The notes under the pieces were generated by a model, which had not been told where the DNA came from, made no database searches, and saw nothing but the letters and a program-made list of their open reading frames with translations. Shown here in pieces: positions 53-58,545 of a stretch of 64,000 nucleotides of DNA. This stretch comes from Lingula anatina (lineage: Eukaryota > Animalia > Brachiopoda), in assembly GCA_051362555.1 (NCBI GenBank), contig CM120642.1, positions 18,910,001 through 18,974,000 of the forward strand. The letters are read 5' to 3'. The position numbers and the translations under genes are program-made. The first letter of the stretch is position 1. Each line of letters begins with the position of its first letter.

Positions 53-16265
<16,213 letters not shown>

Positions 16266-17559: not shown

Positions 17560-19731
17560 TCAAAAAACAAAAAGCAGGAAGCTCCCAAAGACGACATAAA
17601 GTGATGCCACAAACTCGGCGTTCCCGTTCCCCGTTCCGACAGTGGTGGAAGGGGGAGGGCGGCTGCTACCCTGTTGTCCGCCAGAATTGGTGCAGTTATT
17701 ACCCGGACTGGACGTATAGGTTTTCCCGTCAGGACACGAGCACATGTGCGAGGCTGAAGAATGAAAAAAGGGGGAGATTATTATTATTATTCCTCCTTTT
17801 GTAAATAACATGAATTCTATTCAATAAATAAAAATTGACATTTTTTGGGTTTGCTTTCCTCGGGAGAAAGTGAAAATCGCTGAGAAGAATATGGGTGTGA
17901 TGAGAGGGCTGTGGCATTCAATTTGAGTATCTTGTGACGGTGTTTTAGGTGAATTTATGAATGAACGTTAGTTATGTCATTGTGCTGGTGTTACGTGACG
18001 GAGAGTCCCGCATAACAGAGTCCGCTTCCCATTCATTTGTACAGGTGAGCCTCGCCTTAGATTTTGACCCAGATTAACCCCAACCATTGTAACTATATGG
18101 AGGGCGGACTTTCTGTTGCACGGACCCTCAGTTTCGTTACACCGGTTGTGACAGTGCGTTAGGAGTGCGGGTGTGACAGATGTGTCAATGTGTCGGTCAA
18201 TGACGCTATGTCAGGTGTGTCAAGTACCTATTTCGGATGTATCAGACTGTCAGTAGCTTACCTGCTGTGTTAGTACAAACGACCGAGGTAGGCACGTTCA
18301 ACATTGTCCCCGATGGTTGGCTGAGAATGCTTCCTCTGAAACAGCCAAGGTAATATGGCCACTCAGCTGTGACATGGTAGCGATACTGGCCATTAACGGT
18401 CCTCCCATGGCATTCGTCCAAGTCGGCGTTCGTAATGTTGCGATTAAGATCGGAGGCATAGGTGCCGTAGATTGGGAAACCGTCAAAGGCGACAGCGATG
18501 AGTTGGTCTGCTGTGCCTGTAATACATCAAATATATATTATATATATGTAATGCATATGATACATGTATGAGTAAACAGCTACCATACGAGAAATTGCAA
18601 TGTTTGAGTTGTGATATATTTACTGCGTTGAGGAAGGTTTATAAATCACTTTCAGGTTATGAAAAAAGGGAGGAAGAAGAAAAGGAGAAAAAGCGGAAGA
18701 AAGAGGTGAAAAAGAAGACGGAGAAATATGAAGAGAAACAAGGGAAGAAGAGGGAGGGGGGAGAAAAGGAATAAAGCAGAAGAAAAACGATTTCTAGAAG
18801 AAGAGGGGAAATTAAACTATCGTAGACCATTACGATTATCCAGAGTAAGATTCAGTTTATATTCAGTGAGAGTGTGATTGAGTAAATCCACTAATTGACG
18901 TTGGTTGCCTTTGGTCCGATAACAAATCGCATAAAATGAGCGTGTTACACACCGTTGTATACGCAAGCCGGGGATATGTGGTAATGATAGGCCCCTCTAG
19001 TATCGGGATGTCCACTGCACGAGTCGAAGGTCTCAGCGACTGCTGCATCACAATTGGTGCTGGTTAGGGGGTTAAAAACCGCCACGCCGTTGACACCTGG
19101 TGGAAAATACAGGAAACCATAATTTGCATTTTGGGCCCTCCGCTATCTTGTCTATTCTCTCTCCCTCTCCAACTCTCATTCATTTGTTATCATTGTAATC
19201 AATGTAACGGAATTGCTTTTTTTTTTTTTCAAAATTGATGGACCTTCGTATGAGTCTTGGGGTTTATTTATTTATTTATTTATTTTTATTTTTTTTTTGG
19301 GGGGGGGGGGCAATCTGTACAAATAAAAAATCATATTATTCAAAGCAAACTACAGTATTCCTGAAAATCATTCGGCGTAGTCGTGACACATACTGGTAAA
19401 TCAAAACTACATGTATAAAAGGAATAACGCAATGAAAAACGGAAAATATACAGGTACCTATTCCGATTGGTCCCATTGGTAAGCAGTATTTGTTCGAGCC
19501 GGATGGTGTTTGCGGTATCTTGTACTTGTAATTCTGGTTCGTTGCGCTGTTCGGATTCACGGAGCTGGTATGATGATCCGGTAATCCGGTGCTATTGATC
19601 GTGTAATCCGATGCTCCGGTGGTGAAGGTCACAGCTGTTGAGAAAGCGTTTTTCTCACTGTTGGTCAAGCCGGACACTGGCCGCATAAAACAAGTGAACG
19701 CCAGTAACAGGAAGCTGGTCGAAATTGCCAT
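17560..19731 (-). CDS. Secreted, probably GPI-anchored YHYH-domain protein, about 288 aa
   Basis: Exons 19458-19731, 18953-19096, 18262-18516, 17560-17753 (all phase-1 GT-AG introns). Signal peptide MAISTSFLLLAFTCFMRPVSG; motifs STGLPDH, GPIGIGVNGVAVFNP, DSCSGHPDTRGAYHYH, IAVAFDGFPIYG, DLDECHG, YRYHVTAEWPYYLGCFRG; S/T/G-rich linker and hydrophobic C-terminal tail. Confidence 0.9.
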
Positions 19732-21806: not shown

Positions 21807-23290
21807 ATGTCGCGTAAAAGTAAATATTTCATCGTTCTTGTAATGTTAATTGCACTATGGTCGTCGGTATACGCGCAGATATCAAGCAGTAAGTAGTATT
21901 AAGTCTACTACAAGCAATCTACCATTATATTTAATTGTAGTTTTGCTAATTTTGCTTCATAAATAATTTTTTTGAAAAAAACTGATTTACTTTATAACTT
22001 ATAATGTGACGTACTTAATACTAAAGTATACACGGAGTAAAAAAAAAAAAGAAAAATCGATATGTCTTTTAAACCAATGGTATTAAATCACGCTATAGAC
22101 ATAATTTGACTATATAACAAAATACACTGTATCATTATCAGCTGCTCAAACATGGCAGGCGATTTTTTATTTAAAAAATCTAGGTGAGCTGATCAAATTT
22201 GTTCGTGACGGACTGGACGAAACCATCCATGACGACGGCAAGGCCCTGTCGGCTGCTTTGGTGGAGTCATCCAATGAATGGGTGAAGCTGGATGAACGGT
22301 GGCCGGCGCTGGAAAATCTTTGGCAATATCTGGGCACCAGCGTGGTTGAGGAATTCGAAGAAAGAAATAGGTGGAGCAAGAGTGCAGTGGATTGGTCAGA
22401 GAAGGTAGATTCCCCTTGTCTTCCGTTATTGTGCTTATTTAATGTGACCGGTAAAGAAACCGAGCAAAAAAAAAAAAAAACTATCAACACAAACAAACGA
22501 ATAAAAAGCTTGACAGGACGATGTCTTTTATGCCTAGACAAAAAACATCAGAAAATGTTTTTTCATGACAAGCACGTGTATATTTTAAATTTTCCTATAA
22601 GAAAAACCAAATACTTTCTTTTTCTCTTAACTTTCATTATATTTCATTATATTTATATAATAAACTCTTTCATTATGCTTATTTATTTTTGTTTTTAAAT
22701 ACAACAGGTAAGACACGTCAAAAATGTCATGATATACCTCCTTTCCACATTCAAACAATTCACAGAAAGTGATTGTCAGATACAAGAAATGTACATTTCC
22801 AATTTACGCTGTCTATTAAACTGAAGCAAATAATAAACTGGGGAGAAAAAGCGCCATAATAAACATTTTAGAAAGGTTTATAAGGAGGACATCGGTAAAG
22901 ATAATTCACGATAACATTGACGACGGTTATTCGAAGTAAAAAATTGCAAATGAAAGATTGAAATTAATATGTCGTTTGAACATGTCGTTTGTGGCGAGCA
23001 TAAAAGAGAATATGTATCTATGGGATACGAAGATTGATGGTGTTATAATAATAGCATTCATAAGATCGAGAATCAAATTCCGTCATCGAAGAAGCAAGTT
23101 GAGAGAAAAAGAAGGTATTTGGTCCTTTTTAAAGAACAATTTAAGATATACATGTACTTGTTATGAAAAAAAAACTTATTCTCACGCATAGGTTTTTTGT
23201 CTGGGCATTGAAAAATAGTCTTTTCAAGCTTTTTGTTTGTTTGTTTGTGTTGATAGTTTTTTACTCGGTTTCTTTACCGGTCACATACCT

Positions 23291-23321
<31 letters not shown>

Positions 23322-24460
23322 CAAAAGACGAATATTCTTTGATTAGGCCAATAGATTATACATAATGTTTACATATTATAATATCTCATTAACAGTCAAA
23401 ATTATGAAGCGTTTTTTTTTTAAACTTAGGACCCCTTATTTATTTATTTATTAATTTATTATATTGTCAGGTGATCGAATGGATGTCAAAACTGATGAAA
23501 ATCATCACTGCCCTCCAGATCCCCTGCAGCGCTGTGCAGGATACAGCTCTCATCAACCAAGCTCTTGCAGACATGCGGAAAGCCGTAGACATCAATACTA
23601 AGGAGGGGCTGACAGTGACACTCGGAAAGATATCGGAATCAGCCCGACTTCACTCGAATGCCTCCGACAAAATCCGTGGCCTTTCGGCAGACTTCGTCGT
23701 AGTGACGTACATGCAGTTTCTTCCTTTTCTGGGCAACTTGTCGGATGTTGCAGTGCGTTTGGAGGACGTGGTGAAGGACTGCAAAGAACCACTCAAGAGA
23801 GATGTTCATTATGAGAACTTGCAAGAGCTTGTTTGGGATTTAAGAGAAATTAAGAATAATGCTGACGCGTTGCAAGAAGAGAGCAAATCCAATGTGGAGC
23901 GTGTAGAGATGTTATACGAAATGTGTAATGGTGAGTTTTTCTGAGACTTTTCAAAGTAAGGGATGAATTTGGAATTATTTTGAACATTTCTATCTAGCAA
24001 AAGGAACCTCACATTTTTTGATAAACTTGTAATTATACACTCGTTTAATTTATGTACATATTCAATCTTAGTAAAAGAAATCGTAAATTGTTACATACAA
24101 AATGCAAATATGTTATCATATACTAAAAGCCTTTTCTCGAGGGGGGGGGGAGGGCAATAATCGCACGCAAAAATCCCCCGCTCTGTCAAATTCTAATATT
24201 GATAGCTGACAGACATTATTTGTTGGGAAATAATCCGTTCTCACTATATATCAGATGCCGGCCGAGTTCGACTGTGCGAAGCCTTCAGTCGAATCAGCCA
24301 GAACAGGACATCTTCCACGTCAAACCCAGGCAGGAGGCGGAATGGAAGAGAAGCCCGATCGTTACCCGCCCCAAGATTCTTCAGTAACTGGATCTTCAGA
24401 GGAAACAGAAAGAGGTCTATTGCAGGCACCAGTAAAAAACGTTCCTTCAGCAAACCGTAG
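21807..24460 (+). CDS. Uncharacterised secreted, probably helical protein (~322 aa) with a basic C-terminus
   Basis: Phase-consistent exons 21807-21888 (MSRKSKYFIVLVMLIALWSSVYA signal peptide), 22184-22404, 23471-23930, 24255-24460. GC-rich exons in AT-rich introns. The tail contains GRRR, RKR and KKR. Confidence 0.78.
22442..23286. mobile_element. Non-autonomous DNA transposon with ~150-bp imperfect TIRs
   Basis: ATGTGACCGGTAAAGAAACCGAG...CTATCAACACAAACAAAC versus GTTTGTTTGTGTTGATAG...CTCGGTTTCTTTACCGGTCACAT. Confidence 0.8.
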
Positions 24461-28200: not shown

Positions 28201-31200
28201 ATAAAAATATAACAACGAGGAACCAAGCAAAATGTATAAAATATATAGTTCGGAAGCTTCACTTTTCTAAGGGTGTAAATTTACTAAGTGGACAAAATGT
28301 TCGATTTGTAATTTTTCGTATTATTGCAACTACTGTCATTTCGTTTCAGGATAAAGCAATAGGAAATTCTCAATATATTTTCATAAACCCCCTTGTTTCA
28401 AGCTTAAGTTTTTAATAGCATGGAATACTTAACCTGAAAGTCGAGCACATGCCATAGTAGCCGTTATTGCAGGAATGCAAGTATCTCTTGTACTCCGGCT
28501 TGCAGTATGTCTGCGTCACTTGTACAGGAATGTTCACGAAGCGGTCTCTAGCGCACACGTGTCTCCTATAGAAATAGAAAATATTTGGGGATTTATAGAA
28601 ACCGCTATCTTTATTTTGCCCTTAAAAACTATAGCAAGGAATCATAATAACGATTTATGAATTTTTTCGTTTAGTTTCGACAGTTTCTTTCAATTGATGG
28701 CGAGCTCTCCACAGTCAGTTGCAATTTAAATGATTTAATAAATACCACAGCGTTTTACGTTTTAAAACCTAGATAAGACTTTTGTGAGCAAGGTATCTCA
28801 TTGTTTTCGAATGACGCTTGGGTTCTTTAGCGCAATGAAACGTAGGTTAGAGCCCGAGCAGATTTTGAGAAAAGGAAAAAAAATCATTCCTTAATTATAA
28901 ATAACATAAGTTAATAAAATATGTTCAAGAAATATGTGACGTGCATCCAAAGTGATGATCATTGTAATAAAAAAAATGTGAATCAAATCAAATGTAAATC
29001 CGATCGCAGTTGTCGATGGTGACCACCCTCGAGCTCAGCGTGAAGTGAACAATATCAACCGCATTAATTCCAGAAAATTCTAAATTAATTTACTACTGCA
29101 TTCTTTGTTAAGTGCATGGGTCAAATAAGACGGGATCATTGCATTGCCTTCTTTGCACCGTGATATACGAGACCACATACTCATCGCTAAAAAACACAGA
29201 ATTGCTTTTAAAGGGGAAATGTAAATGGGCCGACCAGAAGAGGGTCCTTTCTTTCATGGCGCAATGCACTCAGATCTAAGAAAGGTACTCCTTTACTTTT
29301 CTGTTCAGCACCTGTATCCTCTCAAAACAGTGACGCCATGCAGAATCGGAAACGATCGCAGAATAGATCAAATTGTCCTAAATAGATCACTTGAATAACT
29401 CTATATCTCGGTGAAATACGATGATCTCTGCAATATTGGGGAATGTAAGGACTGAGGAAGCGGTTGAAGGGGGAGGGGAGCGGGTAAAATGACACCAATA
29501 GTAAGTTTAGACAAAGTTTACATTGCCTTCGCGCAGTAGGCCTCATAACTAGTCGTGACTTTATTTATCGTAACACATTATACAGTGTCAATGAAGCCAA
29601 TGAAAATATCAAAAAGCCTCAAAAATCGATTGAATTTTTCACAACATACAATTTTTTTAAAACTGTTATTGTAGTCCATAAAACGACAACCTTTAGAATA
29701 AACCGTTCCGCTGTGGGACTAATATTTTTGAGACTTCTTTGGCCTGGAGACCACATCCATACATTGGGTCCTAGATTGGCTGTATTTCAATCAAAATATA
29801 TTTATATTTACACAGGTTGCGCTGACAATTCTCTCTTGCTGACACCTCCATTATCTGACCAGCTATATGTTACATCAATTACAATAAAACAATTGTTCGC
29901 CCGTTGGTTTCAATCTGCCTAGGAAAACAATTATAAAATATAATACGTTCTTAGGTTGTTTACTTTTTGCTTGCCTTTTCAAAAAGGGCTATTCAATTGA
30001 TATTTTCATTTGAAAAAATAATGAGTTCCGTTTCTCAACAGTTGTATTCCCTAACAATTTTCTGGCATAGATTTCACATATTTTATCTATTATTTGCACC
30101 ATTATTTTTGATAATTTTGAATAAAAAATATTTGCTGCGCACGTGAGAAAGAGCCGTCTCGTTATCTTGAAGCAGCACTTTTGCAGGATAAACCTCTCGA
30201 ATTTCGACCTCCGGTGGCTGAGTAAATAGACCGTACATCGTCTAGTCCTGAGCACCCTGGCGTTCAATTCCAGATTCTTTCATAATTCGAGGAAAGTTTA
30301 AAAAAAAGGATTCCTCTTTATTTTTAAGCGGAGATTTGGACACCTGAATTGAGAGATATCAATTTAGGCTCAAATAGGATTTATTGGATTCTAACACGTT
30401 TACTCCCCGTGGAACACAGTTTCCAACAGAGAGGTTTTTTGACTAAGTTTGTGGACATTTCTAAAGTGTGAGATAAATTATGACCCAGCGAGCCTACAAG
30501 ACACCCCCACCCCCCTCAGACATTCCAATAAAAATGGTGTGAAACTCAGGGTAGGGCGACCTTTCATCTCATCGAAAGTGGTAGAGGGGAACAACTATAC
30601 TCACTTCCCCAATTATTTGATTGGGCTTACATAATCCTATTGAAACATTGAAAATTGCTGCTGAATGTTACAATCTGCACTTTATAATACATTAAGTATG
30701 TCTACAAGCTATAGAACATATTTTCACTGTGGATGTTAGACTGCGCAGCATAGCCTGGCGACGTGGTAAAAATTAATTTTGAATTTTTGAAGGCTATTAA
30801 TTTGTAGTTTTAAGAATACAGTACTGTACCTCCTTTTACTCAATTAACGCTCCAAAATAAATATACTGTGGGTTACCTGTGCAAATTACTTGGTTAAAAC
30901 ACGCTAAAAACACTGTTCTGACGTTAAAACCAAAATTCCACAGCTTCATATCACTAGATTCAACTAACTTCAACCAACAACAATACTCTGAATATTTTAC
31001 AAGAAAAAAAAAACGCTATAAACTAGAGTCGGTATTTCAAGCTGCAAATATTTATGTTAGAGCAATTTAAAATCGAAACATTCTACCTCGTCTTCAAATT
31101 TCTGATCGTTGTGATCAAAGATAAGTTCCAGTATGGATAGCCTTAGGGATAATTATATAATCGCCCTTTTTCGGTAAACACTTTAAACTCCCACTTTGTC

Positions 31201-34243: not shown

Positions 34244-35326
34244 GGGGGGGGGGGGGGGACTTTAGGGCAAGTTCAACGTCCAAAAGCAGGGATAATTATC
34301 AGATCCTTCTGACATGGGTGCGTGCGACGAAGGTAAGACGAGGTGACGACTTTTTGACATGGGTTATCTGCAACGGAGCAGATCCAAAGCGCGTACTTAG
34401 TTCCCAAGGTATAAAAACAGGAAGAATGAAATTCGTTTTTGCCAATTAGTATTTCAGTGCGCTTCCCTCTGCTTCGGATTCGGGGGCTGCGCGTCACTTT
34501 GACTGGCGTCAGATCGTATCTACCTCCCTCCGTTTTCCTCTATGAACTTTGCCTTTATTTCTTTTGGAAAAACAAACTACACACAACAAAGAAAAAAAAG
34601 GTACATGTGCATACTGCATGCCTGTGAAAGTTACCCAAAGCTCGATTTTCGTCTAAATATGCTTGAAAGCTACCCATCTTTCTATTTCGAGCTTAACGAC
34701 AAACGAAACCCCGTCACATTAGAAACCGATGCGCGTTTACTTCTGTCAACTTGGGAAGACGTGTTGCATTCTTAACAAATAGCTTTTATCTGGAACCAAG
34801 CACTTTAATATCGCAGTTGCAGGTACGGACCAAGCAACGATCCTTAATAAATTTTCCTCGAAATCATACTTCAATTTTGGTTTAAAAATCCTTCACAAAA
34901 TACCCTTACTTTCACATGCGTCCTCACTGAAAATCTAATACCATGCCCTTTAATTCGTATACAGTAACTTCGTTCTAAATTCTGTACTATATACAAAGCC
35001 TCCAATAACCATAATCATCCTAGGTTACTTTAAACAAGTTTAGAAGAAAGATGCCTTTGGAATTTAAACGCAAGGAAGGTCTTTTTCACATAATTTATTA
35101 TATAATTTGACATTTAAATCATCTTCCCCCATTTGAAAGTCCGTTACTCTTTTGGTCAGAATCGTACACCTCGTCTTTTGCCGGTGTTCTCCTTCCTAAA
35201 AAATAAATAAAATCAGGAATTAAAATACATGCAGCAAAATGTAAACCCGGGTTCAAACTGACATGCATAAATGAAGTTTTAAATTAAGTGTAGAGAAAAC
35301 ATCGTCAAGACAGCTGAGAGATGAAG

Positions 35327-35400
35327 ATGCAATTCAGAAGACAAGATCAGATCACGGTGTTCATTTGTCCCTATCTGTCTATACACTCATCATTTGCATC
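35327..35400 (-). ncRNA. Box C/D snoRNA, SNORD74 (U74)-like
   Basis: Terminal stem GATGCAA/TTGCATC, box C ATGATGA, box D CTGA. D' guide AGATAGGGACA is complementary to 28S TGTCCCTATCT. Confidence 0.75.
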
Positions 35401-35884
35401 GTCACAAACTCTCGTCATTCCACGCGAGATTCAAAAATACATGATTACGCTTTTCTTTTTTTGCTTTTGCCGATTTCAGAAGAAGTAAGAAATGGACCAA
35501 CTTGGAATCGATTAGATTTTGGCAACGGTCCTTTAATCAATCAAAATGAGAAATAAGCTGCATTGGCAGAAATATGTGCCTCGAATGTTTCTTTAGTTTA
35601 ATATACTTTAAAAAGTCATAAAAAGAGTATAGTTAAGCATATGTTCCTACAGTTGTGTTAATTTTTAAACACACAACAAAATCCACATAAAAAAAAAAAA
35701 ACTTACCAACTTTAAAGATAGCTTTCCAAAACCCTGTGCTTGAAACCGTTTAGTCATTTCAGTTCCACCAGAAAATTTTCCAAATGGACACACACTTACG
35801 TGGGACCTAGAAATTGCAAAAGTGAGCTCAAAAGTTAACTCGTTCTAAAACTGCATGACACCACAAGTACCCTCAAAAAACCAC

Positions 35885-35970
35885 TGGCACTTCAGACAAA
35901 AAATGGAACGGTAAAGGGTTAATATCACCACTGAGTATCATTTGGCAGAATATTATCATCATAAAAGCCA
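35885..35970 (-). ncRNA. SNORD47: Box C/D snoRNA SNORD47 (U47) homolog
   Basis: TGGC/GCCA stem, ATGATGA, ATTCTGCCAAATGA (28S guide plus D'), ACCGTTCCATTTT, CTGA. Both internal motifs match my recollection of vertebrate U47. Confidence 0.88.
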
Positions 35971-36312
35971 GCGTCATCAAACAACTTAATGTTAAAGAAA
36001 AAAGTTGATGCTTATTTATCTCATTCTTACACCAAAAGAACTGAGAACACCTTGGACTGAATGCAATACAAAGAGAAGACATACCTCCTCCTCCTCCTTT
36101 TAGCCCTTCCCGATGCCAATGTTGTGAAGATTCATGAAGACTACAGAGATACAAATGGTCTCACTGGTTCATGGACATTGGTGTTGAAAAACTTCCAATT
36201 CTCCCAATCCAACATAGCTGTCAATATAATAATAATAATAAAACCACACCACAAAGAATTATTACAAGGTAAATACACAGTAAAATTAGTTTCAGAATTT
36301 ATATAAAAGATG

Positions 36313-36421
36313 TTGGCTCAGACTTCCAAGGAAGGACTAAAACCATCTCTGACAGTCTGAGAGACTGACCGTCTCTGGTGGAAACCGCGAATGATGGCAA
36401 AATGGTCTTCATCATCACCAA
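36313..36421 (-). ncRNA. SNORD14: U14 snoRNA (SNORD14), copy A
   Basis: Box C TGATGA; domain A CATTCGCGGTTTC (complementary to 18S GAAACCGCGAATG); domain B CCTTCCTTGGA (complementary to 18S TCCAAGGAAGG); GTCTGA; TTGG/CCAA stem. Confidence 0.93.
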
Positions 36422-36628
36422 CTTTTCATCTAATTTAACAAACATTAATGAAAAGATATATTGGTGTACCCACCACTCTTGCCCATAATTTGTTCCATAG
36501 TGCTTTTTCTTCCTTAGCTCCATCTAAAAATACAAACTGCCATTAATTGAATGGTATGTGCAATACATGCAATTTTATAGATTTTGATTAAAAAATACAT
36601 TTAACTTATGGTTGCACAAGAAGAATTA

Positions 36629-36734
36629 TTGGCTCAGACTTCCAAGGAAGGACTAAGACCATCTCTGACAGTCTGAGACTGACTGTCTCTGGTGGAAACC
36701 GCGAATGATGGCAAAAAGTCTTCATCATTACCAA
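36629..36734 (-). ncRNA. SNORD14: U14 snoRNA (SNORD14), copy B
   Basis: Near-identical to copy A with the same boxes and guide domains. Confidence 0.93.
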
Positions 36735-37060
36735 GACCCTCAAATTCTCTATTTTCTTTGGGTTTTTAAATTCTTCTTTTAGAGAAATGCAGTAGTCTCA
36801 AAGAATACTTTCTCAATTAATGAGTATGCGCAGTCTCTTTAAGTTTCGTAATATTGCAGTATTGAAGTACTACATGTATCAAGACTACATGTACCTTCCA
36901 CAAAAAATGAGCGATGAGAACAAGAAAATATAAATAAAATATACCTCATCTCTTTATCCAGCAGAGGCCTGGTCATTCAATTTCTAGAAGAAAATCAGAT
37001 GGGAATTATGGTTTTTGTTCCATCGAGTTCACAATACAATTTCACATCTCACTATAATTT

Positions 37061-37130
37061 CTGTATCAGATAGGGGCGAAAATAGTATCTTCACTTTAAC
37101 TCGAATGAACTATAAGGTCATCATATACAG
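37061..37130 (-). ncRNA. Box C/D snoRNA SNORD80/SNORD77 (snR60-like), copy A
   Basis: CTGTAT/ATACAG stem, ATGATGA, guide ATAGTTCA (28S TGAACTAT) and guide TTTCGCCCCTAT-CTGA (28S ATAGGGGCGAAA). Confidence 0.88.
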
Positions 37131-37380
37131 TCATGCTTATCCCAAGTTTTAGGTTTCAATCATCATTTCACTGTTTCTAATTATGTGACACTATTTTAAG
37201 AAAATTAATAAATACTTTAAGTAAAGATTAAACTTACCAGTGAGTTATCATTTGAAAAGCTTAATCATCTGTAAAAGAAAATCAGTATTTTGTGATATCT
37301 TACTGTCAACTATCATCTGAACTGCAAAATCTGCAGTTTAAAATAGTGATTTCAGCATTACAGACAAACATGCATTTAAT

Positions 37381-37453
37381 TGCTGTATCAGATAGGGGCG
37401 AAATTTTATCTTCACAGCCAATCGAATGAACTATAAGATCATCATATACAGCA
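37381..37453 (-). ncRNA. Box C/D snoRNA SNORD80/SNORD77 (snR60-like), copy B
   Basis: TGCTGTAT/ATACAGCA stem; same boxes and both guides as copy A. Confidence 0.88.
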
Positions 37454-37740
37454 ACAATGGTTCAAGTTGAAGGAAAATTTGGGAAGGCACAAAAGCTGCA
37501 GGAATTTTGTTTCAATCAATATTATTATGTTCCTTCCACAAAATTATACAGAAAAAAGTGCTTACCTCTGTTAAACTCTTTGTTTCCTCTGAACATCAGC
37601 AGTTCAACAAAAGGCTGGAATTGCACAATGGGCAAATATTTTTAAAGATGTTGAAAATAAAATTTTCCGTGAATTTAAAAATCAGGCATCAACATGTTTA
37701 ATATGATCTTAAATTTGACAAAAACTGATAATGATAATAC

Positions 37741-37822
37741 TGCTTGCCTCAGTCTTTTGTGGTGATTTTATTCGTCATACAAGCAGTCAAGAGTAGCAAA
37801 TATGGACACATCATTGGCAAGC
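37741..37822 (-). ncRNA. SNORD76: Box C/D snoRNA SNORD76 (U76) homolog
   Basis: TGCTTGCC/GGCAAGCA stem, box C AATGATG, guide TATTTGCTACTC-TTGA as recalled for vertebrate U76, box D CTGA. Confidence 0.85.
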
Positions 37823-38045
37823 AATGTTGAGTTAAAAGGAATGTTCCTCAAGTCATTCTTGATTAACCTAAATTATATTTTTTGTGATTTTTCAACAAAG
37901 AACAGCTTCATTTAAATCTAGCTTGTCTAAAAAGGCAAATTAGCTTGATGTAATATTCAATTTGTAATTTTTTTTTAATTTCCAGATTACTTTACATAAT
38001 ACTAACCTTGGATAATTGAACCTTTCTTCACATGGTAACGATAAA

Positions 38046-38134
38046 ACTGTTCTTCAGTGCCAGTTTGTGTGGTCTTGATGCATCATCTGAAAACGTCAAA
38101 ATTAGTGTAAATCACAAATTGTATCATTAACAGT
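38046..38134 (-). ncRNA. Candidate box C/D snoRNA, unassigned
   Basis: ACTGTT/AACAGT terminal stem, degenerate box C (ATGATAC), D' TTGA, C' ATGATGC, box D CTGA; intronic position matches its neighbours. Confidence 0.5.
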
Positions 38135-39006
38135 AAAATCCCAAATTTAAATTTTGAAACCTTCAGGAGTCCTACTGAATATTTTACAACAGGAAGAACA
38201 TGATTAATTTAAGTAGTGCTGTCCCCAGTTACACAGTGATTGCGAAAGAGATTGAAAACTTACCAGACATGTGGGCTGGAGCAAATTAAATTTTGTCTGC
38301 CCACACCTTTTTTTACCGGCCCACAACAAAATAATTAAGCTGTTTATTTTCACTTCATTTTTGATGAATATTATTGTCTGGCATTTTAAATCGCTGCTTT
38401 TTAATTTTAAGGCCAGATGTAATAGGATATTTAAAGGTTTAAGTTTAAACGTCTTTCATTTTGGTTGCTTTCTGGCATCCTTTTTACATCTGGGTTGCTT
38501 ATCTTAATTTCTAATCTTTTAACACAAGATCATGTATCCTTTGTAAATTTTATTCCAATTTTTGAGTAAAATTAAAATATAAGTCATAGTGAAGTGGAGC
38601 TTCCAACTTATCTAACTTTTTTTAGATTTTCACTCTTGGAAAAATGCTTGTCTGTTTGTTAGCAGGGATTGTCCTGGGTCAAAATCTGGTCCGGCCATTT
38701 TGGACCACTTGGCCATTTTTTTTTAAATGTGTGCCGTGAATTATTTAAAGAAAATTCATTGTATTTCAATATTTTTTATATGATTAAATTCAATGAAAAA
38801 AGGCTTGATGCTACTACTCTGAAGTCCTAAATAATTGTAGTGTGTGGAAAAATCTTCCAAAATAAACATACTGTCCGAAAAATTGTACAGTATTTAATGA
38901 AAAAATCTTCAGAATTGATAATTGCACTATGCCAAATAATTGCACTACATGGAAAAGGTAGACAAATTCCATTTTTATTGTAAAATAAAGCTATTGCTCT
39001 CATAGC

Positions 39007-39155
39007 AGGCCCGTAGCCAGCAATTTTAAAAGGGGGAGGGTCTTTTTCCATAAAAACGCCGTGTACCTAGATCAAATTTTACCAAGAGTGGACCTTTTGT
39101 CAGCATAAGAGGCGGTTCTTTCGAAACCCCTGAACCATCCCTGGGTACGGACCAG
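39007..39155. mobile_element. Short MITE-like element
   Basis: Imperfect inverted ends CAGGCCCGTAGCCAG / CTGGGTACGGACCAG. Confidence 0.45.
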
Positions 39156-40848
39156 AGTCTGAAAAGAATCTTTATTCAATATCTAAGCTAGTTCGTTTAG
39201 ATGAATATAATGGACAGTTTTGCACCCTGACTGTGCCATTGCGGATTTTCCTCATTGAAAATGATGTTGTCCCTCATTTTGACATATAGCACCGCTAAAG
39301 GTGCAATATTACTTAAATATCCGTTAAAATTAGTTAAGAGCACCCATCTAAAAAGCAAATGAATATTTCTCCTTTTCACTTATCGTTTACTCAACATGCA
39401 GTCCGACGGAAGCCATACTTGTTTACCCAGCACGTGTAGTTAGGTGTTCTCAGAGGTCCGCGCGTGGCCCGTCGTAAGCAGTTTGAGCGACCTGTTTTCA
39501 GTCTTGAGCAGTACGATTTTCATTGACCTGTAGTTGTTTCAGTTTCGATACATTTTTTTGTGAAACGGGTCACATGTCAGCCCTCACACCATCGCTACGC
39601 ACACTTCGAGCGACATTTAATGTACATAGACCTTTATTACAAAAAATAGTGTTTGCTATTTGTACGCACCAGTATGGCGCAAGTTAAAGTTTTACTTGCG
39701 CACAGTGCGTACTTAGAGCTCTACGATAAGTTCAAATATGAGGCGAGGTGTCTGTTAAAGAAACCGACTTTAGTCCGTCGGACATGTGGGCCGATGAGTT
39801 AAAAGGGTTGTCCAGCCCACAGAATTTTTGCCGGCATATGGCCGTGGTCCGACGGCTTTCGCAATCATTGCCAATATATCAGATTTCTACCCATTTTTAC
39901 AGTGCATGCTGCTTTGAAAATATTGCTTTGGAAACTGAAGCTATGTTGAAATCTGACTAAGAACAGCTAGTATTACTTGAACAATGTTAAGTACTACTTG
40001 AACGATGTTTTACTCGGCTTCGGAAAATTCTACAATAAAAGCTCGAGTTGCTTATGAATTTATCTTGCTTGCTTTCTCAGTTGGTTGAATCCTGCACTTG
40101 ACTCCCACACTGTTTTTCAGGGTCAAGAAAGTAATCATCATTGAAAGTAAGCTTTGAAAACACGTTTTCGACAAATGAGCAGCGTCGTTTGGGTGCAGTT
40201 TGAGACAGATTGAAAGACCACATGAGGGCACCGGTCTTGGTACCAACACCTTTTTAACATGCCTTTGTGCAAAAAATACGATACATAAACGACATACCAT
40301 AACTGGTTAAGATAGATGGATGTTTTCTTAATCTCATCCTGTCTCGAAATGTCTTTCTGTTCTAAAATGAAGACGATGTTTGCCGATTCTTGTGCACCCT
40401 CTTCCTCGTTTCATGCTGTGCGGTAAAATGAGACAGATGTATAAATGTTCGCTAGAGGGCGGTACATACAAGACAACACTTTTCGAGAATAGTCATCCAT
40501 GAAAAAGACTCGTTTTCGAGATACAAAATATCCACGCGTTTTAACACTAGCATCTGTTAAAATTATAGAAACGAGGTACACGCCCCCCCCCCCCCCCCCT
40601 TCTTGAACCTTCCAGATCTGTAACGTTACTTTCTTTATTTCTTATTCGACGGTCTGGTGAAGCCATTTCAGTAAAGCATTCACCTGAAAAACCAGGTAGA
40701 AATTAGGAAAACAGACTGTCCTATCAAATGCATCTTAGTAGGAAGTTAATTACGCAAATTATCGATTTCCGTCGAACGTCACGAAGGAAATTTCACTCGC
40801 AAGTACACGTGTATTAATCGAGGTCATGCCGCATGTGACTAAATGTGA

Positions 40849-40899
40849 CCAATCAGAGGAGCGCACGTGCGAGGTTTTGACCAATCCGCTTTCGACACG
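40849..40899 (+). promoter_or_regulatory. Two tandem ER-stress response elements (ERSE-like) of HSPA5
   Basis: CCAAT-N9-GCACG (40849-40867) and CCAAT-N9-ACACG (40881-40899) against the consensus CCAAT-N9-CCACG. TATA-like ATATATTA at ~40959; non-coding first exon ends at ~41074 (AG|GTAGGT). Confidence 0.75.
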
Positions 40900-41408
40900 A
40901 CCGGTACTATCATCCTAAAGCCGTCTTAGTATAGTACGAGTCACCATTAACGGTGACGATATATTAAGAACGAAGGTGCAGGATTGTCATTAATCGGAGA
41001 CAAGACACTGGAGAAAGAGTTTCATAACCGTACCAGCAAATACTGAGGCACATATCACAGTCAAGAAATACAAGGTAGGTATCTTAAATATCTAAATATA
41101 CGAGTTTTACAGTTCGCGTCATTTGAGGTCAACTTGCCGGCAAACATGTGGAGTGAACACGTTTTGTTCAACGATTTCCTGATCATGAATTTATCTTGAA
41201 TATAATATGTCGCATTTTGTTAAGAATCAGCTATCACAGCTGTTCTAAAATATTTTATGTATTTGTAGGTGTGTATGAAAATATTGTTATCGTCATATTA
41301 TATGTTTTCATACCAGTTATTATTAAACCATATCAAATATGAAATAAAGGAAAAGACACCTCGTCACCTTTTAATAGAGAATTGAATTTAAAACGATTTT
41401 TTTTTCAG

Positions 41409-44948
<3,540 letters not shown>

Positions 44949-47292: not shown

Positions 47293-50200
47293 CTACAGTC
47301 TAGACTTGACATTTCTTTCTAGTACTGCACGTATGTTGCCTGACGGTTTGTCAGCTGGTTGGAATATCTGAAAAGACAATACAAAACCCACCTTAATGCA
47401 TGATGTAAAAACGACGGCCCTACATGCTTTTCTCAGCATAAATTAATGTCTAAATGTTGTCCTACTTGGTTACCGTTTTTCAGTATAAATTAATGTTTAA
47501 ATGTCAAAATTAGAGTCTGTGTATAAGGAATCCTCCACATAGCACCTTAAATTACATGAAAATATGTATGTGTCAAAGGCCCGGATCAAATCTAGTCCTA
47601 TGCATAAAAAGCCCAGACCCCATGTTTAATACGCCCTGGCTGGGCCCATTCTTTATGGTGTCTTTGCATTGTTAACAGCATATTGGGCAAGTTAATTAAC
47701 AAAGTTAATTGGCCAAGCTGCCAGTTTGTTTGTATGGCATGTGCAGGGGATGTCTTAGATCAAGGCACATATTATTATTCTTACAGGTGTGGCAAATGAG
47801 ATATAGTATTTCATTACCTGTGATTTGTAAAATACATCTGAGGATCATACTTTTAAAGATGTTTAATGTTTAAAGAAAAGACGTAGATTGATTTAGTCAC
47901 ATTTACTAAAGAAACGGTTAATTAAAGGTGGGCTCCATTTGTTAGTGTGTTATTTTAGTTATCTAGATTTTATACAGATTGTAGGAAAAAGTTTGCTCTT
48001 TAATGTTTTGTTGACCTTTTGGGAAAATCTCTGCATTTTCTTAAGGATAATTAAAGATAGGTGTGAATTACTAGTAAAACTTTGCTCTATTTGCAGGCAC
48101 AGCTATAAAAAAACTCCCTAAAGTTATATTTTTATTTACATCATAATCTATGCCAGTTTAGAACACTGATAAAGTCGATTTATTAGGATACATTAGGATA
48201 CATCTTCAGATGTATTTTACAAATCACAGGTAATGAAATACTTTATCTCATTTGCCACATCTGTAGGTCTAATAATATGTGCCTTGATCTAAGGCATTCC
48301 CTGCACATGCCATACAAACAAACTGGCAGCTTGGCCAATTAACTTGGTCAATTAACTTGCCCATTATGCTGTTAACAATGCAAAGACAACATAAAGAATG
48401 GGCCCAGCCAGGGTGTAATAAACATGGGGTCTAGGCTTTTTATACATAGGACTAGATTTGGTCTGGGCCTTTGACATATATATTTCTTAAACATAATGCT
48501 ACTTATAAGTTCATTTAAAATGTGCCAATGATATAAAACATGTAACTGTGCTATCAGATTAGTAAAACATCCTCAAATATAAGTATTTTCTCTCACTCAC
48601 TTCATTATTGTCTGTGATTCCCAATTTTGTAAACTTGCTGAAGTCAAATTTGTAGGCGTGCACATTTGGCAGCACCAATTCTATGCGGCTGATCTGAAAG
48701 ATGATACGAGACCAATTACAGTACAGCATATTCGCAGCATAAATGATTCTAAAGGAGTTTCACCTTCACTCAATATACTGCAGGTGAAATTGTTTTGACA
48801 AGACAGATTTTAAATACACCTGAACTTAATGGGAAAATAAAGAAATAAATAAAAATTATTTTACATAAATATGGTCCCTTCTACACATTGATGACAAGGG
48901 TACCTATTATGAAAGACCGTAAATCATGTAAAACACTACCTGGTAACTATTAACCAGAATGCCATGAGGAAGAGGAGAAGGAAGAAGAAAACTTACCTGT
49001 GGGACCTTGGACAGAGCCTGCTTTTGAGCAAGATAAAGTGTATGCTGGACAGAGGGAGAGAACAATCCTTGGTCGGGAGGACCAGCAAATTTGTCCAGGA
49101 TGGCACTTTTTACTGCAGACCTGTAAAAATATAAGAATATATATAATATTACCTAGTATATAAATTTGTTGTGTACAACTTTGGAGGCTCAAATGCTGCA
49201 AGCAAATGGCAACAACTGTTCCTCTACACAGGATAGCAAAATGCGATTTAAGTTTCTCCAGATACAAGAATGATATGTTCATTGAATGATTTTTACACGA
49301 TTGATATATTTCGCCCCAATCAGTGTTCTTATTTTTTGATAGAAAAATAATAGTGAAACAAATGTCTTATCTTAAATTAAATTTCAAAGCAATAAATAAA
49401 TGGCAGCAAAAGAAAGCTTTCTTTTGGTTGAAAAATCAAGTTGTAAAAAGAATCTGTTTATGGCTCACTGATATGCAGATTTAAAAACGAAGACAAGGGC
49501 ACACCTTCGATTAAAACACGGGTCACCTGCATTCACTTTATTTTAAGTTCTTACCATGAATTACAATAAGCTAGCCCCTCAGTTGTGCTGTAATCCCACT
49601 TTGCCTGAACCACAGTGCAAAAGATTCGATCACTCATGTCTGGCAAGATGCGATACTCGTCATCCACAAAATTGACAAAGGAAGAGGCGGTGGTTTTCAG
49701 AATCTTCATGCCCTTCAATCCAGCGCTGACCTTGGGAACACCTAGAACCATGAGGCATGTTACAGAAGAGGTACAATAAATCTAATGATTGACTTTCTTA
49801 TTAATAAAGCTACGGTCCATTGTTGTGATCAGTACCACTGATCTTCAACAGGTGCCAGTTTCCTAAAAAAATTTAAGTTAGTTAGTTCCCTGGCTTAGCT
49901 GACTACGATTTCCATGAGGGTGCTGTTACACTGCTCCTGATAGGGTAAGATATGACCATGTAGCCTTGGTAGTTAAGTTCTCAGCCAGGGAACCTGATTT
50001 CAGTTTTTTGTGAAACCAGGGCCAGGGAAATGAGTGCGAGTGACTTGAGGGGTAACTAAAGATAACAATGTAAATTTGGATTTTCTACTTTTCCTCTTAA
50101 TTAAATGATATCACACCATTGGATGAATAAGAATACTCCCTCCTTTGTGATATGTATTGCTGGTCATGTGAAAGTAAGTTTCCTTACAGTTACAAGTGTA

Positions 50201-53200
50201 ATGAAACTGACAGTTTTTGTTCTGTAGTCATACAAAAAAATGCTCAAACTTTTAAACAGAAAAACATACACTTTTCCTGAATGCCCCAAAGCAATTTAAT
50301 TAGGCATAGCAAATGTTTTTTAGGCATATGCACATATTATGCATTAGGTTAGTTGAAATTAATTTACCCATCCTACCAGTCATATTACTTAATAATGTTT
50401 CACCAAATCACTTCTGAAAAGACTGAAATAAATGTTTTTCATTGTTTTTAGCATAATTTGATCTCCAACACTTTTCAATTTTTTTTTATGTTTCTGAGCT
50501 TCGTCCATCTCCTCTTGAGTCTACATGTAATCCAGAATTTCTTATTAGACCGGACATATTAAAGGATATCACGCTAGGCTATGGCATTTCATGATGACAT
50601 GTGAGACTAGAAAATGTACAGCAATCACGTGAGTTTTCAAGGTGAAACTCTATGCATCAGAAATCAAGTTACTGTATAAGAAAGCAATGCAGTGATACAT
50701 TTTGAGAAACAACCCAGTTTCTAACTAGACCTGACATCTGTATAAAACAGATAATGATGTAGATCAGGAAACCATTAACCTGCAATCAACCTTTGAGTTA
50801 TTAATAATTTCATCTGTGGTTGTCTGATTATTCTCAACAGGGAAAAAAAATCAATAAAATTCTCCTTAGGCATCATATACGAAACCAAACCATTTTTATG
50901 AAGGAATTATGTAATAAATGTGTTTTTCCTTTCCATAAAGCTGATTATAGAGGTTTAATACAACCATATACATATCATTACCTTATCATTATCATTCTCT
51001 TACTACAGTACAAGTATATTTTTACAATTACTATAGGGTCTCACAATATATTCTATAATACTGCAGTATTGAGACTACAATGACAGTTTTGAAATAAGTT
51101 TACACAAAAACAGATACAAAGACAATGTTCCATCAAGGTATATTGTTCCAAAGTTATAGTGGATGAACACAGTAAAAGGGCTAAATGAGGGTAGATACAC
51201 ATGTACTAGTACATAATTGAGAACCAGATGTTAATTACATAAGGTTTAAGTTACTCCCTGAAACTTGCTAAAATTGTTGATTAGTGTTTGTGGTTCCATG
51301 TTATAAAATTAATATAAAAAAATCCTGCAGTCACCTGCAGTTCAGATCATTCAAATCTAACTGCACATGTATCTATAATCCATAATAACTGTCACTGATA
51401 GGAAATTGCATTGTCAATGTGAGGAAATAGGTTTTCATGGGTTCTCTAAAAAAATATACTTAAGACAGCATGTTTGGTCCAGGAAAACAAAAGTCAATAT
51501 TTCAGTTGTAACAGGGCTTTTCTTAAAGGTCTAAGGCTGTATTCCCAGGGCTTTTAGATCGATCTATCCCCGCGGGGAGTCTCACTAGATTACTGTCAGA
51601 TAATCCGGCTTAAATGTCCGTCCCGCCTACTACAAGCTGTAAGGGGGTAATTAACTTTCGTGTCCGTCCGGCTGACAGCTATTTAGCGTGAACCCCCAGG
51701 GAGTTAGGTCGATCTAAAGTAGATCGATCTAATCTCTGGAAATGGGGTCTAACTGTATCTCTGTCCAATAGATGAATAAATCTAGTCTTTTTTCTCTATT
51801 CAATTTGGTAGTGCATGGACAACATTGTTTTTATCCTTCAGCAGGGAAATCTAACGCTGAAGGTAGGGGCATTTCATTGTTTCTATTTAGAACTCTTATC
51901 AGTCTGGTGCTCATATTATCTTGCTTGTTTCATCAAATATGACAAATTTGGTTGTTTTATTTATAAAATTTTGACTCGGTCACTTCATAGCTTTTCTCAG
52001 CCAAATTAAAGAAAGATCCTGTATTTCCTTGCACTGTCTTAAGTGCTTGCATGGATCCTAACCTAAACAAAATTATTCCTTGATAAATGGACTTACCATG
52101 TTTTTCCTGTATAACATCACAGAATCGTATGCATTCAGGGCTAGAGATGAATGCATGCACATGTTCCCGTCCTCCCTGAAATGAAATAAAAATGCCAGAA
52201 TGCTTTGAGAAAACACAATTCATTTTTAACTTGCACAAGAAAATAATTCATTATGATCAGTTTGCTTTCTTTATTTCAAAATTTTTTCACAAAATTTATA
52301 CAATCCTGAAAAATATAAATAGAGGCTAATGAAGTTTGCATCAAGTTGAAAAAAATTAATAAAAATATTAAAGTATTTATTTACTTTCTGAAAAAGATTC
52401 AAAACAGTTCAGCCGTGAATTAACTATTATAATAAATTGGGTTTACCTGCTGTATCCTCTTCCAAGGAGCCTGCTCTATATGGATATTTGCCTTAACCAC
52501 CCATGGATACTTGGTCAAGAAGTGATTGGCTAAAATCTGAGCAAACACTTCAATGGTATCTATCTGAAGAAAAGAAAGTCTTCATCAGGTTATTTTTCAA
52601 TTCATCAAGATACACCCTGAGTTTAAAGTAACTCAAAATGGGTATGATATAGTGTAGAGGTAAGTTTCAAGTTATCTCTGAAACTCAGGTTGTCAAAATA
52701 AGATGGGCGAGAGAACATACAGTCTTTATGCAAGTTGGACATACTATAATGTTGTATTTGTAAACAGGATATAAATAAAAATTTCCAAAATATTTTGTCA
52801 AAATGAATGTACAGAAAATCAAATTGAAAAACTCTCCACTGTCTTTATAGTTTAAGTTAAACCCTCCTGGATGTTTTTTTCCCCTATTCCCTTTTATCAA
52901 GGAAGAAAATGCAGACACATCATACGTATAATGGTATATAGAACAATCAAATTAATTTCTCCTCTTATTATTACTGTCTAAACAATTGTGCAACAATAAA
53001 GAGCTTATATATATCCATCACCATCCAAGTAAATATTTAATTTGTATTGTCAGATCCAGCTACACCTGTCATTTAACACAAATGTATGGATGCTATCAAA
53101 GTCTAGGTATGAAACTAACTTAAGTGATGTTGTGTTACTTTTAGGCACCACTGCAAATATTGACATTATCCTAATGTCAAATTGCATTATGTTATTAAAA

Positions 53201-53874
53201 TCATTACAACTTATCCTTGGCAGTTTGGACTATGATATCAATATTAAAACAATTCAACTTTCACAAAAAAGGAATATTCACATTTATACTGAGAACAAAA
53301 GATGTGGTGTATTTTACAAGCATATATTAAATGCGTGAATTCATGACACACTAAGTCTAGACTTTTTGTTTTAGACATTACAGTAAATGTCACACTCAAT
53401 TCCAACACGAATTTGCAATGGTGATGGATATGTGGCATCTGCTCATGCTTCATCCTCTGGGGTATATCTTTCTTATTATTAAATATCAGAAAAGAAAACT
53501 ATTAATTCTACCTAAGATCATATTGCTGTATCAGTTTTCTTTAACGTGCATCTTACATTAAAAAGTCTATTCAAAACTTTGAATTTTAGAGTCTAAATAA
53601 ATAATATTTATTATCATAATTATTATTATCATCACCACATACTGACCCCATTCTGTTTAGCCAGAATATAACAGGTGTTCTTCTGTGAATCAGTCGCAAT
53701 GACATCAGTGTTGTCACCTCTTAGATAGTCTTTCTTTGAGCTCAGTGTCAAGGCTGTGTTGATTTCCAGCTCCTGTACATGGTGCACCCGGCCCTCGCGG
53801 CGTACTTTAAGTAACTTGACATAGTTCTTGCCATAGTCACTGTCTGCTATCTGCACTTCATGGTCTGATAACAT
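47293..53874 (-). CDS. UOX: Urate oxidase (uricase), about 300 aa, intact
   Basis: Exons 53647-53874, 52447-52563, 52097-52175, 49555-49741, 48997-49120, 48601-48693, 47293-47367. Motifs YGKNYVK, IATDSQKNT, ILKTT, SPSVQ, LPNVH, DKPSG; peroxisomal PTS1 -SRL*. Acceptor 4 nt before the ATG; probable 5'UTR exon donor at ~56421. Confidence 0.96.
47569..48478. mobile_element. Foldback-type non-autonomous element with ~270-bp TIRs in uricase intron 6
   Basis: 47569-47842 is the near-perfect reverse complement of 48201-48478 (TGTGTCAAAGGCCC ... GGGCCTTTGACATA). Confidence 0.88.
49851..50024. mobile_element. Degenerate MITE
   Basis: Inverted subterminal repeats GTTCCCTGGCTTAG / CTCAGCCAGGGAAC. Confidence 0.45.
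51532..51752. mobile_element. PIF/Harbinger (Tourist)-like MITE
   Basis: TAA-flanked; inverted ends ATTCCCAG...AGATCGATCT / AGATCGATCT...CTGGAAAT; near-identical copy at 60288-60507. Confidence 0.75.
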
Positions 53875-54556
53875 GGTGCTTTAAAAACATGCAAGAAATA
53901 CAGACGATTCAGATTAAAAGACTACAAAAATGTAACAAGTTATATATGGTAGTCAGTTGCAATAATATTGTTGACCTCTTTTTTAACCCAGTGAAATACC
54001 TATGTGAGTTGGAAAAACTTGGTAATTTTTTAAACAAATGATAATTAAGAAACAAAATAGTGTCAAACCAAGTCCATAAGGGAATCTTGGTTATTAATTT
54101 ACAACAAAACATGGATAGGAAATAGAGGTTGAGCTTCAGAGACGAACGATGCACGGTTCTTTATTTTCACACTTACTGGATGCCCACACGTAAAATTTCT
54201 GTTATATACAAAGAATTAAAATTTTTGAATGCCCTGAAACAGCTAGGACAGGTAGAAATGTAATCCCAGTCACTTCTACCTGTCCTAGCTTTCAAAGCAC
54301 TGCACTAAGTCTGTCTCCAAACCATCACGTGGTTATTTTTCACAGTCGTCTCGCCATGAAATAAATTATTTCTAGACTGCTTTTAAGGCACAATTTAAAA
54401 CATGCATGAACTAATGACACTGCTGCATGCTGAGGGACATCTAGGCAAAGAAAAAAGGATTCTGTAGTTTAGCTTCTTCCATATAGCTGAACAAATTCAA
54501 TTATTGGACCTGGTATATTTATACACTGAGTGCTGTGTGATTTTTTTTTAAATTAA

Positions 54557-57387: not shown

Positions 57388-58460
57388 ATGGAAACACCTT
57401 TCGTGTTGCTGTTTATATGCTGTTTATCTATCTACATCAACAACTGTTGGTCGAGCCTACAGTGTGTTGGTGAGAATGGAAAGGCAGTAGATTGGTAAGT
57501 GGTGTGCAAATGGACTGACACCTGTTTTTTTATTGGGGAATCGCCGGAGATATCTCAAAGATTCTTCTCAGCCTTCGCTGCGGTGTAATTATATTATTTT
57601 GCTTCCTGGCTAAGATAAAAGTGTAGTGTAGTAGTCGGTGTCCAACCTTCGACGTATTTTTTTTTTTTTTTTTTTGAAATAGATTTAATGATTTTATAGA
57701 TTTACAATTTTACAAATCACATGATGATGATGGTGTTTCTGTAATTGAGGCAAGAATGTGGATCGGTCTTGCCAGGTTAAGGTTAATGCCTAGTCAGCTG
57801 ATCTCTCTTCCATGAGTCATGTAAAGAACAGTGCCTATAGCCGATCATACACCCCAGTTAATTGTAAACATGCAGAGACTATGCACCAGTAGCCTTTATT
57901 ATCTTAACTTGTTGTTATGAATCATCAGAATGGTACAAATCACATGATGGAGCATTACAGGATTAGTACAAATGAAAGCCCTTTTTCGCAATGTGGGGTA
58001 CACTTTAAATTTCTGTTCCAGGCCATTTTGAAAGATTGACAACATAATAACCATGGCTATTACAGAAGAGTGTCATATAGATAAAGTCTCCACATATCTT
58101 ATTCTACGTACCACACTTCTAAATACTGTACAAGTGTCATTATGTGTGTCTTTATAAGGATGAAATATTTGCAAAACAGACAAGAAATATATATTTTTTA
58201 ATTCAAATCTTATTTACAGGTTTATTGCCTACAAGATTCCAAAGATAGCCGAAAGCTCGAATCCATTTGTAAAGGAAGGCTTGGCATATTTCTATATGGA
58301 CAATAATACTGTGTCAGTGGCATGGGCACTTTCAAATAATTCGTTAAACGGTACTGGAGGTGCCATCTATAAGACATTAGAGCCACTTTACAAAGCTGAA
58401 AACACCACGGAGGTAAAAAGTATTTTAACAGTATTAGCTTCAATTGTTATATTTTGTATC

Positions 58461-58545
<85 letters not shown>

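Follow-up and report, generated by a model that had tools for sequence, protein, structure and literature searches.

Can an lncRNA (long non-coding RNA) be followed from the vertebrates into the protostomes? Exons of lncRNAs are not alignable across such distances, and a cargo of small nucleolar RNAs (snoRNAs) may give a signal that can be traced. The question is raised by a gene of the brachiopod Lingula anatina, located in a stretch of 64,000 nt of contig CM120642.1 (assembly GCA_051362555.1, positions 18,910,001 to 18,974,000; hereafter the window, with positions counted from its first letter). An earlier note, made from the sequence of the window, had described there a hidden non-coding host of C/D-box snoRNAs resembling vertebrate GAS5. 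RNA-seq, Rfam searches and the mapping of guide targets support a non-coding multi-snoRNA gene of the UHG/GAS5 type. We regard it as a real, expressed snoRNA host and as a good candidate for a pre-vertebrate GAS5. While its architecture is ordinary, such hosts being present in flies, fungi and protists, four GAS5 families in a spliced protostome host provide a concrete and cheap test of lncRNA survival from the bilaterian ancestor.

The transcript and its eight C/D-box elements

Nine RNA-seq runs were considered for the species, all poly(A)-type or unspecified long-RNA, and the reads of four of them (X1, X2, X3 and X6) were aligned to 34880-40576 for the host junctions. They define a single minus-strand transcript that is spliced across eight GT-AG introns and extends from about 40510 to 35075. 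Every intron has junction reads in three of the four runs, two introns also in the fourth, and always on a single strand. The counts in X1/X2/X3/X6 were 10/9/9/3 for intron 1 (junction 38086/40298), 11/8/4/0 for intron 2 (37614/38007), 17/9/7/0 for intron 3 (37268/37566), 15/10/15/0 for intron 4 (36983/37238), 10/12/14/0 for intron 5 (36523/36945), 15/17/12/0 for intron 6 (36217/36474), 17/4/4/2 for intron 7 (35804/36083) and 17/2/6/0 for intron 8 (35194/35706). The first mates of these reads lie on the plus strand, and in stranded runs the junctions of the BiP/HSPA5 gene, which adjoins the host on the plus strand at about 40965-44948, show the opposite orientation; therefore, the host RNA is that of the minus strand. 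A spliced minus-strand transcript linking the elements, as the earlier note had proposed, is thus seen in the junction reads of all eight introns.

Exon 1 (40298..40507, 5' end approximate) has its donor at 40297. Reads cover 40500 in three of the four runs and none goes beyond 40576, with the start somewhere between these two positions; the pyrimidine run at 40507-40501, where coverage fades, is a candidate 5' terminal oligopyrimidine (5'TOP/TCT) start. Exons 2 to 7 are short (38007..38086, 80 nt; 37566..37614, 49 nt; 37238..37268, 31 nt; 36945..36983, 39 nt; 36474..36523, 50 nt; and 36085..36217, 133 nt), as is exon 8 (35707..35806, 100 nt). The last exon (35075..35195, 3' end approximate) contains an AATAAA at 35099, and depth reaches 0 below 35070 in three of the four runs. 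The gene had previously been given the extent 35070..39405, which is too small: it leaves out both the first element (40077-40141) and exon 1, which runs from 40298 to at least 40500. We have taken this element to be the one that the earlier note called unassigned, as no other candidate turned up.

One C/D-box element lies in each intron, on the minus strand. In order of transcription, they are E1, an orphan (40077..40141, from C box to D box); E2, of the U76 type within the U24 family (37749..37814); E3 and E4, two copies of a U80/snR60-type double guide (37388..37445 and 37066..37124); E5 and E6, two copies of U14 (36634..36728 and 36318..36418); E7, a U47 (35892..35962); and E8, of the U74/snR64 type (35334..35393). 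Both the number of elements and their distribution, one per GT-AG intron, agree with what had been read from the sequence (junctions for eight of eight introns, Rfam and a box scan), and so does the order orphan, U76, U80, U80, U14, U14, U47, U74, which is given by Rfam and target mapping together. E4 is identical to E3 in 50 of 59 columns, and E6 to E5 in 92 of 101.

Only five matches above the gathering threshold of Rfam were found in the entire 64 kb, all of them on the minus strand within the host (35888-37819): two to SNORD14 (36630-36733, 69.5 bits, and 36314-36420, 65.7 bits), one to SNORD47 (35888-35967, 57.4 bits), one to SNORD24 (37745-37819, 45 bits) and one to snR60_Z15 (37380-37454, 44.6 bits). 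A second snR60_Z15 match, at 37058-37133, scored 40.4 bits with a cut-off of 41 (E 4e-4). The elements at 35334-35393 and 40077-40141 stay below the cut-off of every Rfam family and possess a C box, a D box and a terminal stem. SNORD14 and SNORD47 were therefore returned as the earlier note expected, and SNORD74 and SNORD76 were not returned by name and were assigned through their targets. When the two strands of the window were scanned blindly for a C box, a D box and a stem of at least 4 bp, seven distinct elements emerged, all in the host and none on the plus strand, U47 being the one element missed. The cluster is not due to chance. Folding z-scores were weak except for E3 (-3.8), and such weakness is expected for C/D RNAs.

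The distances from D box to acceptor in introns 1 to 8 are 1990, 134, 119, 82, 110, 100, 85 and 138 nt. Five of the eight fall within the 75 to 130 nt that had been claimed, two exceed this range slightly, and the first lies far outside it. This first snoRNA begins 156 nt past its donor, in an intron of 2211 nt (38087..40297, defined by junction reads) that is lengthened by repeat-like DNA downstream of the snoRNA (38230-39800), with reads on both strands and with loose ends. The repeat-like DNA probably consists of mobile-element fragments that displaced the snoRNA 2 kb from the acceptor; a check of intron 1 for internal repeats gave no repeat structure of note.

Two alternative forms lack all or most of exon 8: one skips it, and the other keeps only a 7-nt micro-exon (35800-35806). 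The skipping junction (35194/36084) has 1/1/6/0 reads in X1/X2/X3/X6, and the micro-exon junction (35195/36083, with 5 letters between) has 0/9/8/0. In the skipped form, U47 and U74 share one intron. Usage of the full, micro and skipped forms in X1 differs from that in X2 and X3, alongside variants at 35166 and 35186, and is possibly allele-dependent.

Regarding the last intron, RNA of the minus strand at 35246-35400, which comprises the U74-type snoRNA together with some 85 nt of the intron downstream of it, reaches depths of 35, 20 and 20 at 35285 in three poly(A) runs of one study, which equals or exceeds the depth of the last exon. Many fragments in these runs end at 35246-35247, and upstream depth is 4, 0 and 0 at 35455; in other runs the depth of this RNA is 4, 5, 4 and 0. 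Its appearance is that of a precursor extended at the 3' end and possibly adenylated, with the snoRNA capping it.

Guide targets and the orphan element

Guides were mapped on the ribosomal RNA (rRNA) of eukaryotes other than Lingula, in 53 ribosomal DNA (rDNA) loci, most of them short. These loci (L005-L057) are eukaryotic large-subunit (LSU) rDNA contigs in prokaryote genome records, in which they are contamination, and 53 were returned of about 270 estimated. In a C/D snoRNA, the methylated nucleotide is the one opposite the fifth base upstream of box D or D' (D+5).

The D' guide of E2 pairs over 11-12 bp in L011, L020, L015, L036 and L007, with an A at D+5 that lies 12 nt after one U24 cytidine and 2 nt before the other. 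The human 28S sites 2338, 2350 and 2352 have this same U24/U76/U24 spacing (PMC11014333 Table S4), and the target is the counterpart of human 28S Am2350. E2 has no guide for C2338, and its D guide, like those of E7 and E8, finds no rRNA target in the mapped loci. Since D' points to A2350 and the D guide is without a target, E2 is of the U76 type; U24, which the Rfam name SNORD24 implies, was ruled out by target mapping. U76 is listed without an Rfam accession in PMC3511168 (Table 1).

The two targets of the double guides E3 and E4 lie 91 nt apart in all four rRNA loci checked, which is the spacing of human Am1521 and Gm1612 (PMC11014333 Table S4). Of the 36 loci that span the site of the D guide, 26 match it exactly; the D' guide is short (9 bp) and has a non-canonical D' box. 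The presence of both guides defines U80, so the pair had been rightly linked to U80 when described as 'U80/77'; its U77 part falls, U77 being ruled out by target mapping.

E5 has a 13-bp D guide with a C at D+5, together with processing domain A, and both E5 and E6 target the 18S cytidine of U14 (human Cm462). By raw count, both U14 copies are also exactly complementary to two further stretches of LSU rRNA, close to where U80 pairs, over 10 nt in 24 of the 53 loci and over 9 nt in 26 of the 53.

The D' guide of E8 forms an 11-bp duplex with a C at D+5 in L007 and L015; this C lies 11 nt after the U79 adenosine and is the counterpart of human 28S Cm3820. E8 scores 21.9 bits, below cut-off, with snoR44_J54 of the same clan, and its guide is common to Afu_335. 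The D' guide of E7 places a C at D+5, 46 nt beyond the U74 site, in L007; no other locus has a matching site (L015 differs there). This C is the counterpart of human 28S Cm3866, and the human sites of U74 and U47 are 3820 and 3866 (PMC11014333). The antisense element of E7 before box D (35895-35912, minus strand) is close to the Rfam SNORD47 consensus and gave no convincing rRNA target in the mapped loci, which hints at another conserved target. Altogether, the predicted target spacings of 91, 46, 12 and 2 nt agree with human numbering, and by this target mapping the family assignments made before hold.

A search of metagenome contigs with the U47 pattern gave four loci, none with an Rfam match at E 0.5 and hence attributed to chance, and the rRNA, U14 and U80 patterns gave 0 loci in viral contigs.

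According to established snoRNA biology, splicing and debranching would be followed by trimming of each intron to a C/D small nucleolar ribonucleoprotein with fibrillarin. Seven of the eight elements are predicted to guide known rRNA methylations, and fibrillarin would modify the equivalents of human 28S Am2350, Am1521, Gm1612, Cm3866 and Cm3820 and 18S Cm462. U14 would additionally aid 18S processing, and the exons, rich in short open reading frames (ORFs), would be a by-product that is likely cleared by nonsense-mediated decay.

The remaining element is E1. Its D guide pairs with nt 5-17 of 18S rRNA over 13 bp with one bulge (-20.8 kcal/mol), in both of the two loci that include the 18S start, and D+5 falls on U8. 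No shuffle out of 300 and no random 18-mer of the window out of 300 scored as well on either of two 7-kb rDNA loci, and the true odds are somewhat weaker than these counts, because the scoring rule was chosen after the match had been seen. The D' guide has no consistent rRNA target in the mapped loci. U75, U44, U78, U79 and U81 were tried as identities for E1 and rejected, with no Rfam match near the cut-off (the best, SNORD79, gave 16.3 bits against 47). Based on its sequence, we predict that E1 is an undescribed guide for 18S U8.

Our literature search returned no paper on Um8 of 18S with a snoRNA. Um8 is said to occur in trypanosomatid small-subunit rRNA, and RiboMeth-seq performs poorly at RNA ends. 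The predicted site is missing from a six-species methylation table, in which the first 18S site is position 27/28 (PMC11014333). One could also argue for a chaperone role of E1, since PMC2655684 (Table 3) gives 18S 5-22 as a target of U3. E1 resembles pre-rRNA chaperones of the U3/U14 type in that its pairing lies within this U3 stretch; it differs from them in being an ordinary C/D element of 65 nt, outside any Rfam family, whose pairing is placed like that of a guide for U8 methylation.

Common descent with vertebrate GAS5 and its rivals

The Lingula host shares with GAS5 (SNHG2) and with the chicken gas5-like gene its short exons, one C/D snoRNA per intron and the lack of a long ORF. It also shares part of the cargo: as the earlier note had claimed, four GAS5 families are present (U74, U76, U80 and U47, by Rfam and targets), which makes four of the five assignable families and five of the eight elements (U76, U80, U80, U47 and U74). 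In chicken, U74, U75, U76, U80 and U80 occupy introns 1-5, U44 intron 7, U79 intron 9 and U47 intron 11 (PMC2653536). The run U76-U80-U80 in consecutive introns, with U80 copies that are double guides, is as in chicken introns 3-5, and U47 comes later in both genes. We consider it fairly probable that the non-coding host and vertebrate GAS5 go back to one ancestral snoRNA cluster. The grouping of these guides likely predates the split of vertebrates and most invertebrates.

Several observations weigh against common descent. The enrichment in GAS5 families is strong, at least four being drawn with a probability of 1.5e-4 to 3.3e-3 (5-6 draws from 60-100 families, nine of them GAS5 families), but the test is post hoc, with assumed family counts and uncorrected for the number of comparable host pairs; U78 and U81 are counted among the nine on our assumption, following the earlier note's list. 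The four shared families do not stand in a significantly conserved order, since 10 of 24 permutations are as good and the adjacency of U76 and U80 is a 1 in 6 event, and U74 is last in the Lingula host and first in chicken. Five GAS5 families (U75, U44, U78, U79 and U81) are absent from the window, and two U14 and the orphan are extra to the GAS5 cargo; in chicken, U14 is hosted by introns of HSPA8 (PMC2653536). The flanks are BiP, an EMI-domain gene, uricase, kinesin, DNase II and a YHYH gene, with no ZBTB37 or DARS2, whereas mammalian GAS5 lies between DARS2 and ZBTB37 (PMC6789762). Furthermore, snoRNAs are reported to be mobile (PMC3511168).

The Lingula gene could be an independently assembled UHG-type host that collected ancient families by intron-to-intron movement, with an overlap with GAS5 due to chance. 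U76/U24, U80/snR60, U74/snR64 and U14 are indeed pan-eukaryotic (PMC3511168 section 6), and fly hosts combine the families differently (PMC11014333 Table S6). Drosophila Uhg1-3 are, like the Lingula gene, invertebrate non-coding multi-snoRNA hosts with tandem duplicates (PMC11014333 Table S6; PMC4430873), and there a U76 type resides in Uhg1, two genes named U14 in Uhg2 and a U74 type in Uhg3. In the fly, however, the GAS5-type families are split among Uhg1, Uhg3 and Nop60B, a coding gene that carries a U80 type (PMC11014333 Tables S4 and S6), while Lingula keeps them in one gene. U76, U80 and U74 types spread over three hosts mean that co-hosting is not obligatory. The missing flanking synteny, the displaced U74 and the three of eight elements outside the GAS5 cargo would also fit independent assembly. 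In contrast, four of five assignable families from a single nine-family vertebrate host are improbable by random draw, and the U76-U80-U80 run agrees with chicken. The U47 site is listed for human and Xenopus only, among the six species of PMC11014333, and not as methylated in Drosophila, yet U47 sits in this same Lingula host, which extends it to a protostome. Given both sides, we find independent assembly rather unlikely.

Common descent from an ancestral cluster is thus our preferred reading, and the claim of an orthologous host older than the protostome-deuterostome split is favoured by the cargo and is not backed by flanking synteny or by the position of U74. Similarly, the shared relative order stands for U76-U80-U80 and the later U47; U74 has moved, and order alone is not significant. 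With flanking synteny tested and not found, we place the gene among the GAS5/UHG-type hosts and hold orthology to GAS5 to be probable. The ancestral bilaterian host would have carried at least U74, U76, a duplicated U80 and U47; the Lingula lineage would have lost or relocated U75, U44, U78, U79 and U81, moved U74 to the last position and gained two U14 and the orphan. A bolder and more tentative proposal is that GAS5 dates back over half a billion years as a gene of bilaterians, identifiable in a brachiopod by its snoRNA cargo alone. In the Lingula lineage, it may have been wired to the stress promoter of BiP, have acquired U14 and carry an undescribed guide for the 18S 5' end at U8, acting by methylation or as a chaperone.

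If common descent is true, GAS5 is among the oldest traceable animal lncRNA loci, and the snoRNA cargo would be its ancestral function, with the tumour-related functions of its exons arising later. GAS5 has been described as conserved at least across gnathostomes (PMC4408788 section 18). The literature searched, which left out most subscription papers, held no report of an invertebrate GAS5, and the annotation of the Lingula genome in RefSeq or Rfam may already contain the individual snoRNAs.

A further rival sees in the host a protein-coding gene that is cryptic or has decayed, or the source of a functional micropeptide. The full isoform does contain an ATG ORF of 60 aa, the longest of the transcript, across exons 8-9. 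Against a coding role, this ORF starts about 640 nt into the transcript, which holds 28 ATG triplets, and the longest ORF falls to 33 aa in both the skipped and the short forms of exon 8, which account for most junction reads of X2 and X3. For its 43-aa part in the last exon, no protein of 23-76 aa came up as a candidate homologue, and neither this part nor 11 long frames over 35275-40641 have a Pfam match, the joined ORF itself not having been searched. The absence of a coherent ORF, already pointed out, thus holds for the parts tested, and a coding role, micropeptide included, is very improbable. That the elements are relics and the transcript upstream antisense noise of the BiP promoter would fit the head-to-head start and a depth under that of BiP in X4, X5 and X7 (it is comparable in X1), and is next to negligible in view of the accurate splicing of eight introns, the intact boxes, stems and guides and the Rfam scores above cut-off.

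The gap to BiP and the neighbouring genes

Over its last exon, BiP shares 275 of 278 residues with Lingula anatina GRP78, and its N-terminus in the window is identical too, the next-best full-coverage single-copy BiP matches reaching 85-87% identity; the invertebrate, protostome source that had been suspected is thereby confirmed, and a bivalve source is ruled out. BiP reads start by 40969 at the latest, on the strand opposite to the host, roughly 400-460 nt from the host start. The two genes are head-to-head, and the short gap between their diverging 5' ends (40510..40965) is likely a promoter common to both. A motif scan of the gap gave what we take to be two near-matches to the endoplasmic reticulum stress response element (ERSE), at 40849 and 40881, and two CACGTG motifs (40806 and 40864). 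Window-wide, the ERSE count is not above chance (it was reached by 11 of 100 shuffles). At Drosophila Uhg promoters, Myc binds E-boxes (PMC4430873).

In vertebrates, U14 is transcriptionally tied to an Hsp70-family locus by its place in HSPA8 (PMC2653536). The Lingula U14 copies resemble this arrangement through BiP and differ in lying in a separate non-coding gene that would share with HSPA5/BiP only the likely promoter; the link between U14 and Hsp70 may be a coincidence.

Finally, the neighbourhood was scanned with Pfam, using the 145 longest of 199 non-BiP frames of at least 62 aa, a scope that shorter exons could escape. The open frames at 22105-23941 had no Pfam match, and one of them gave no usable match in an atlas search. 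Neither DARS2 nor ZBTB37 was among the matches, which comprised only a kinesin motor (8797-11649, minus strand), a YHYH protein (18245-18526, minus), an EMI domain gene (28415-28621, minus), a uricase (48910-53880, minus) and a DNase II (58164-61128, plus).

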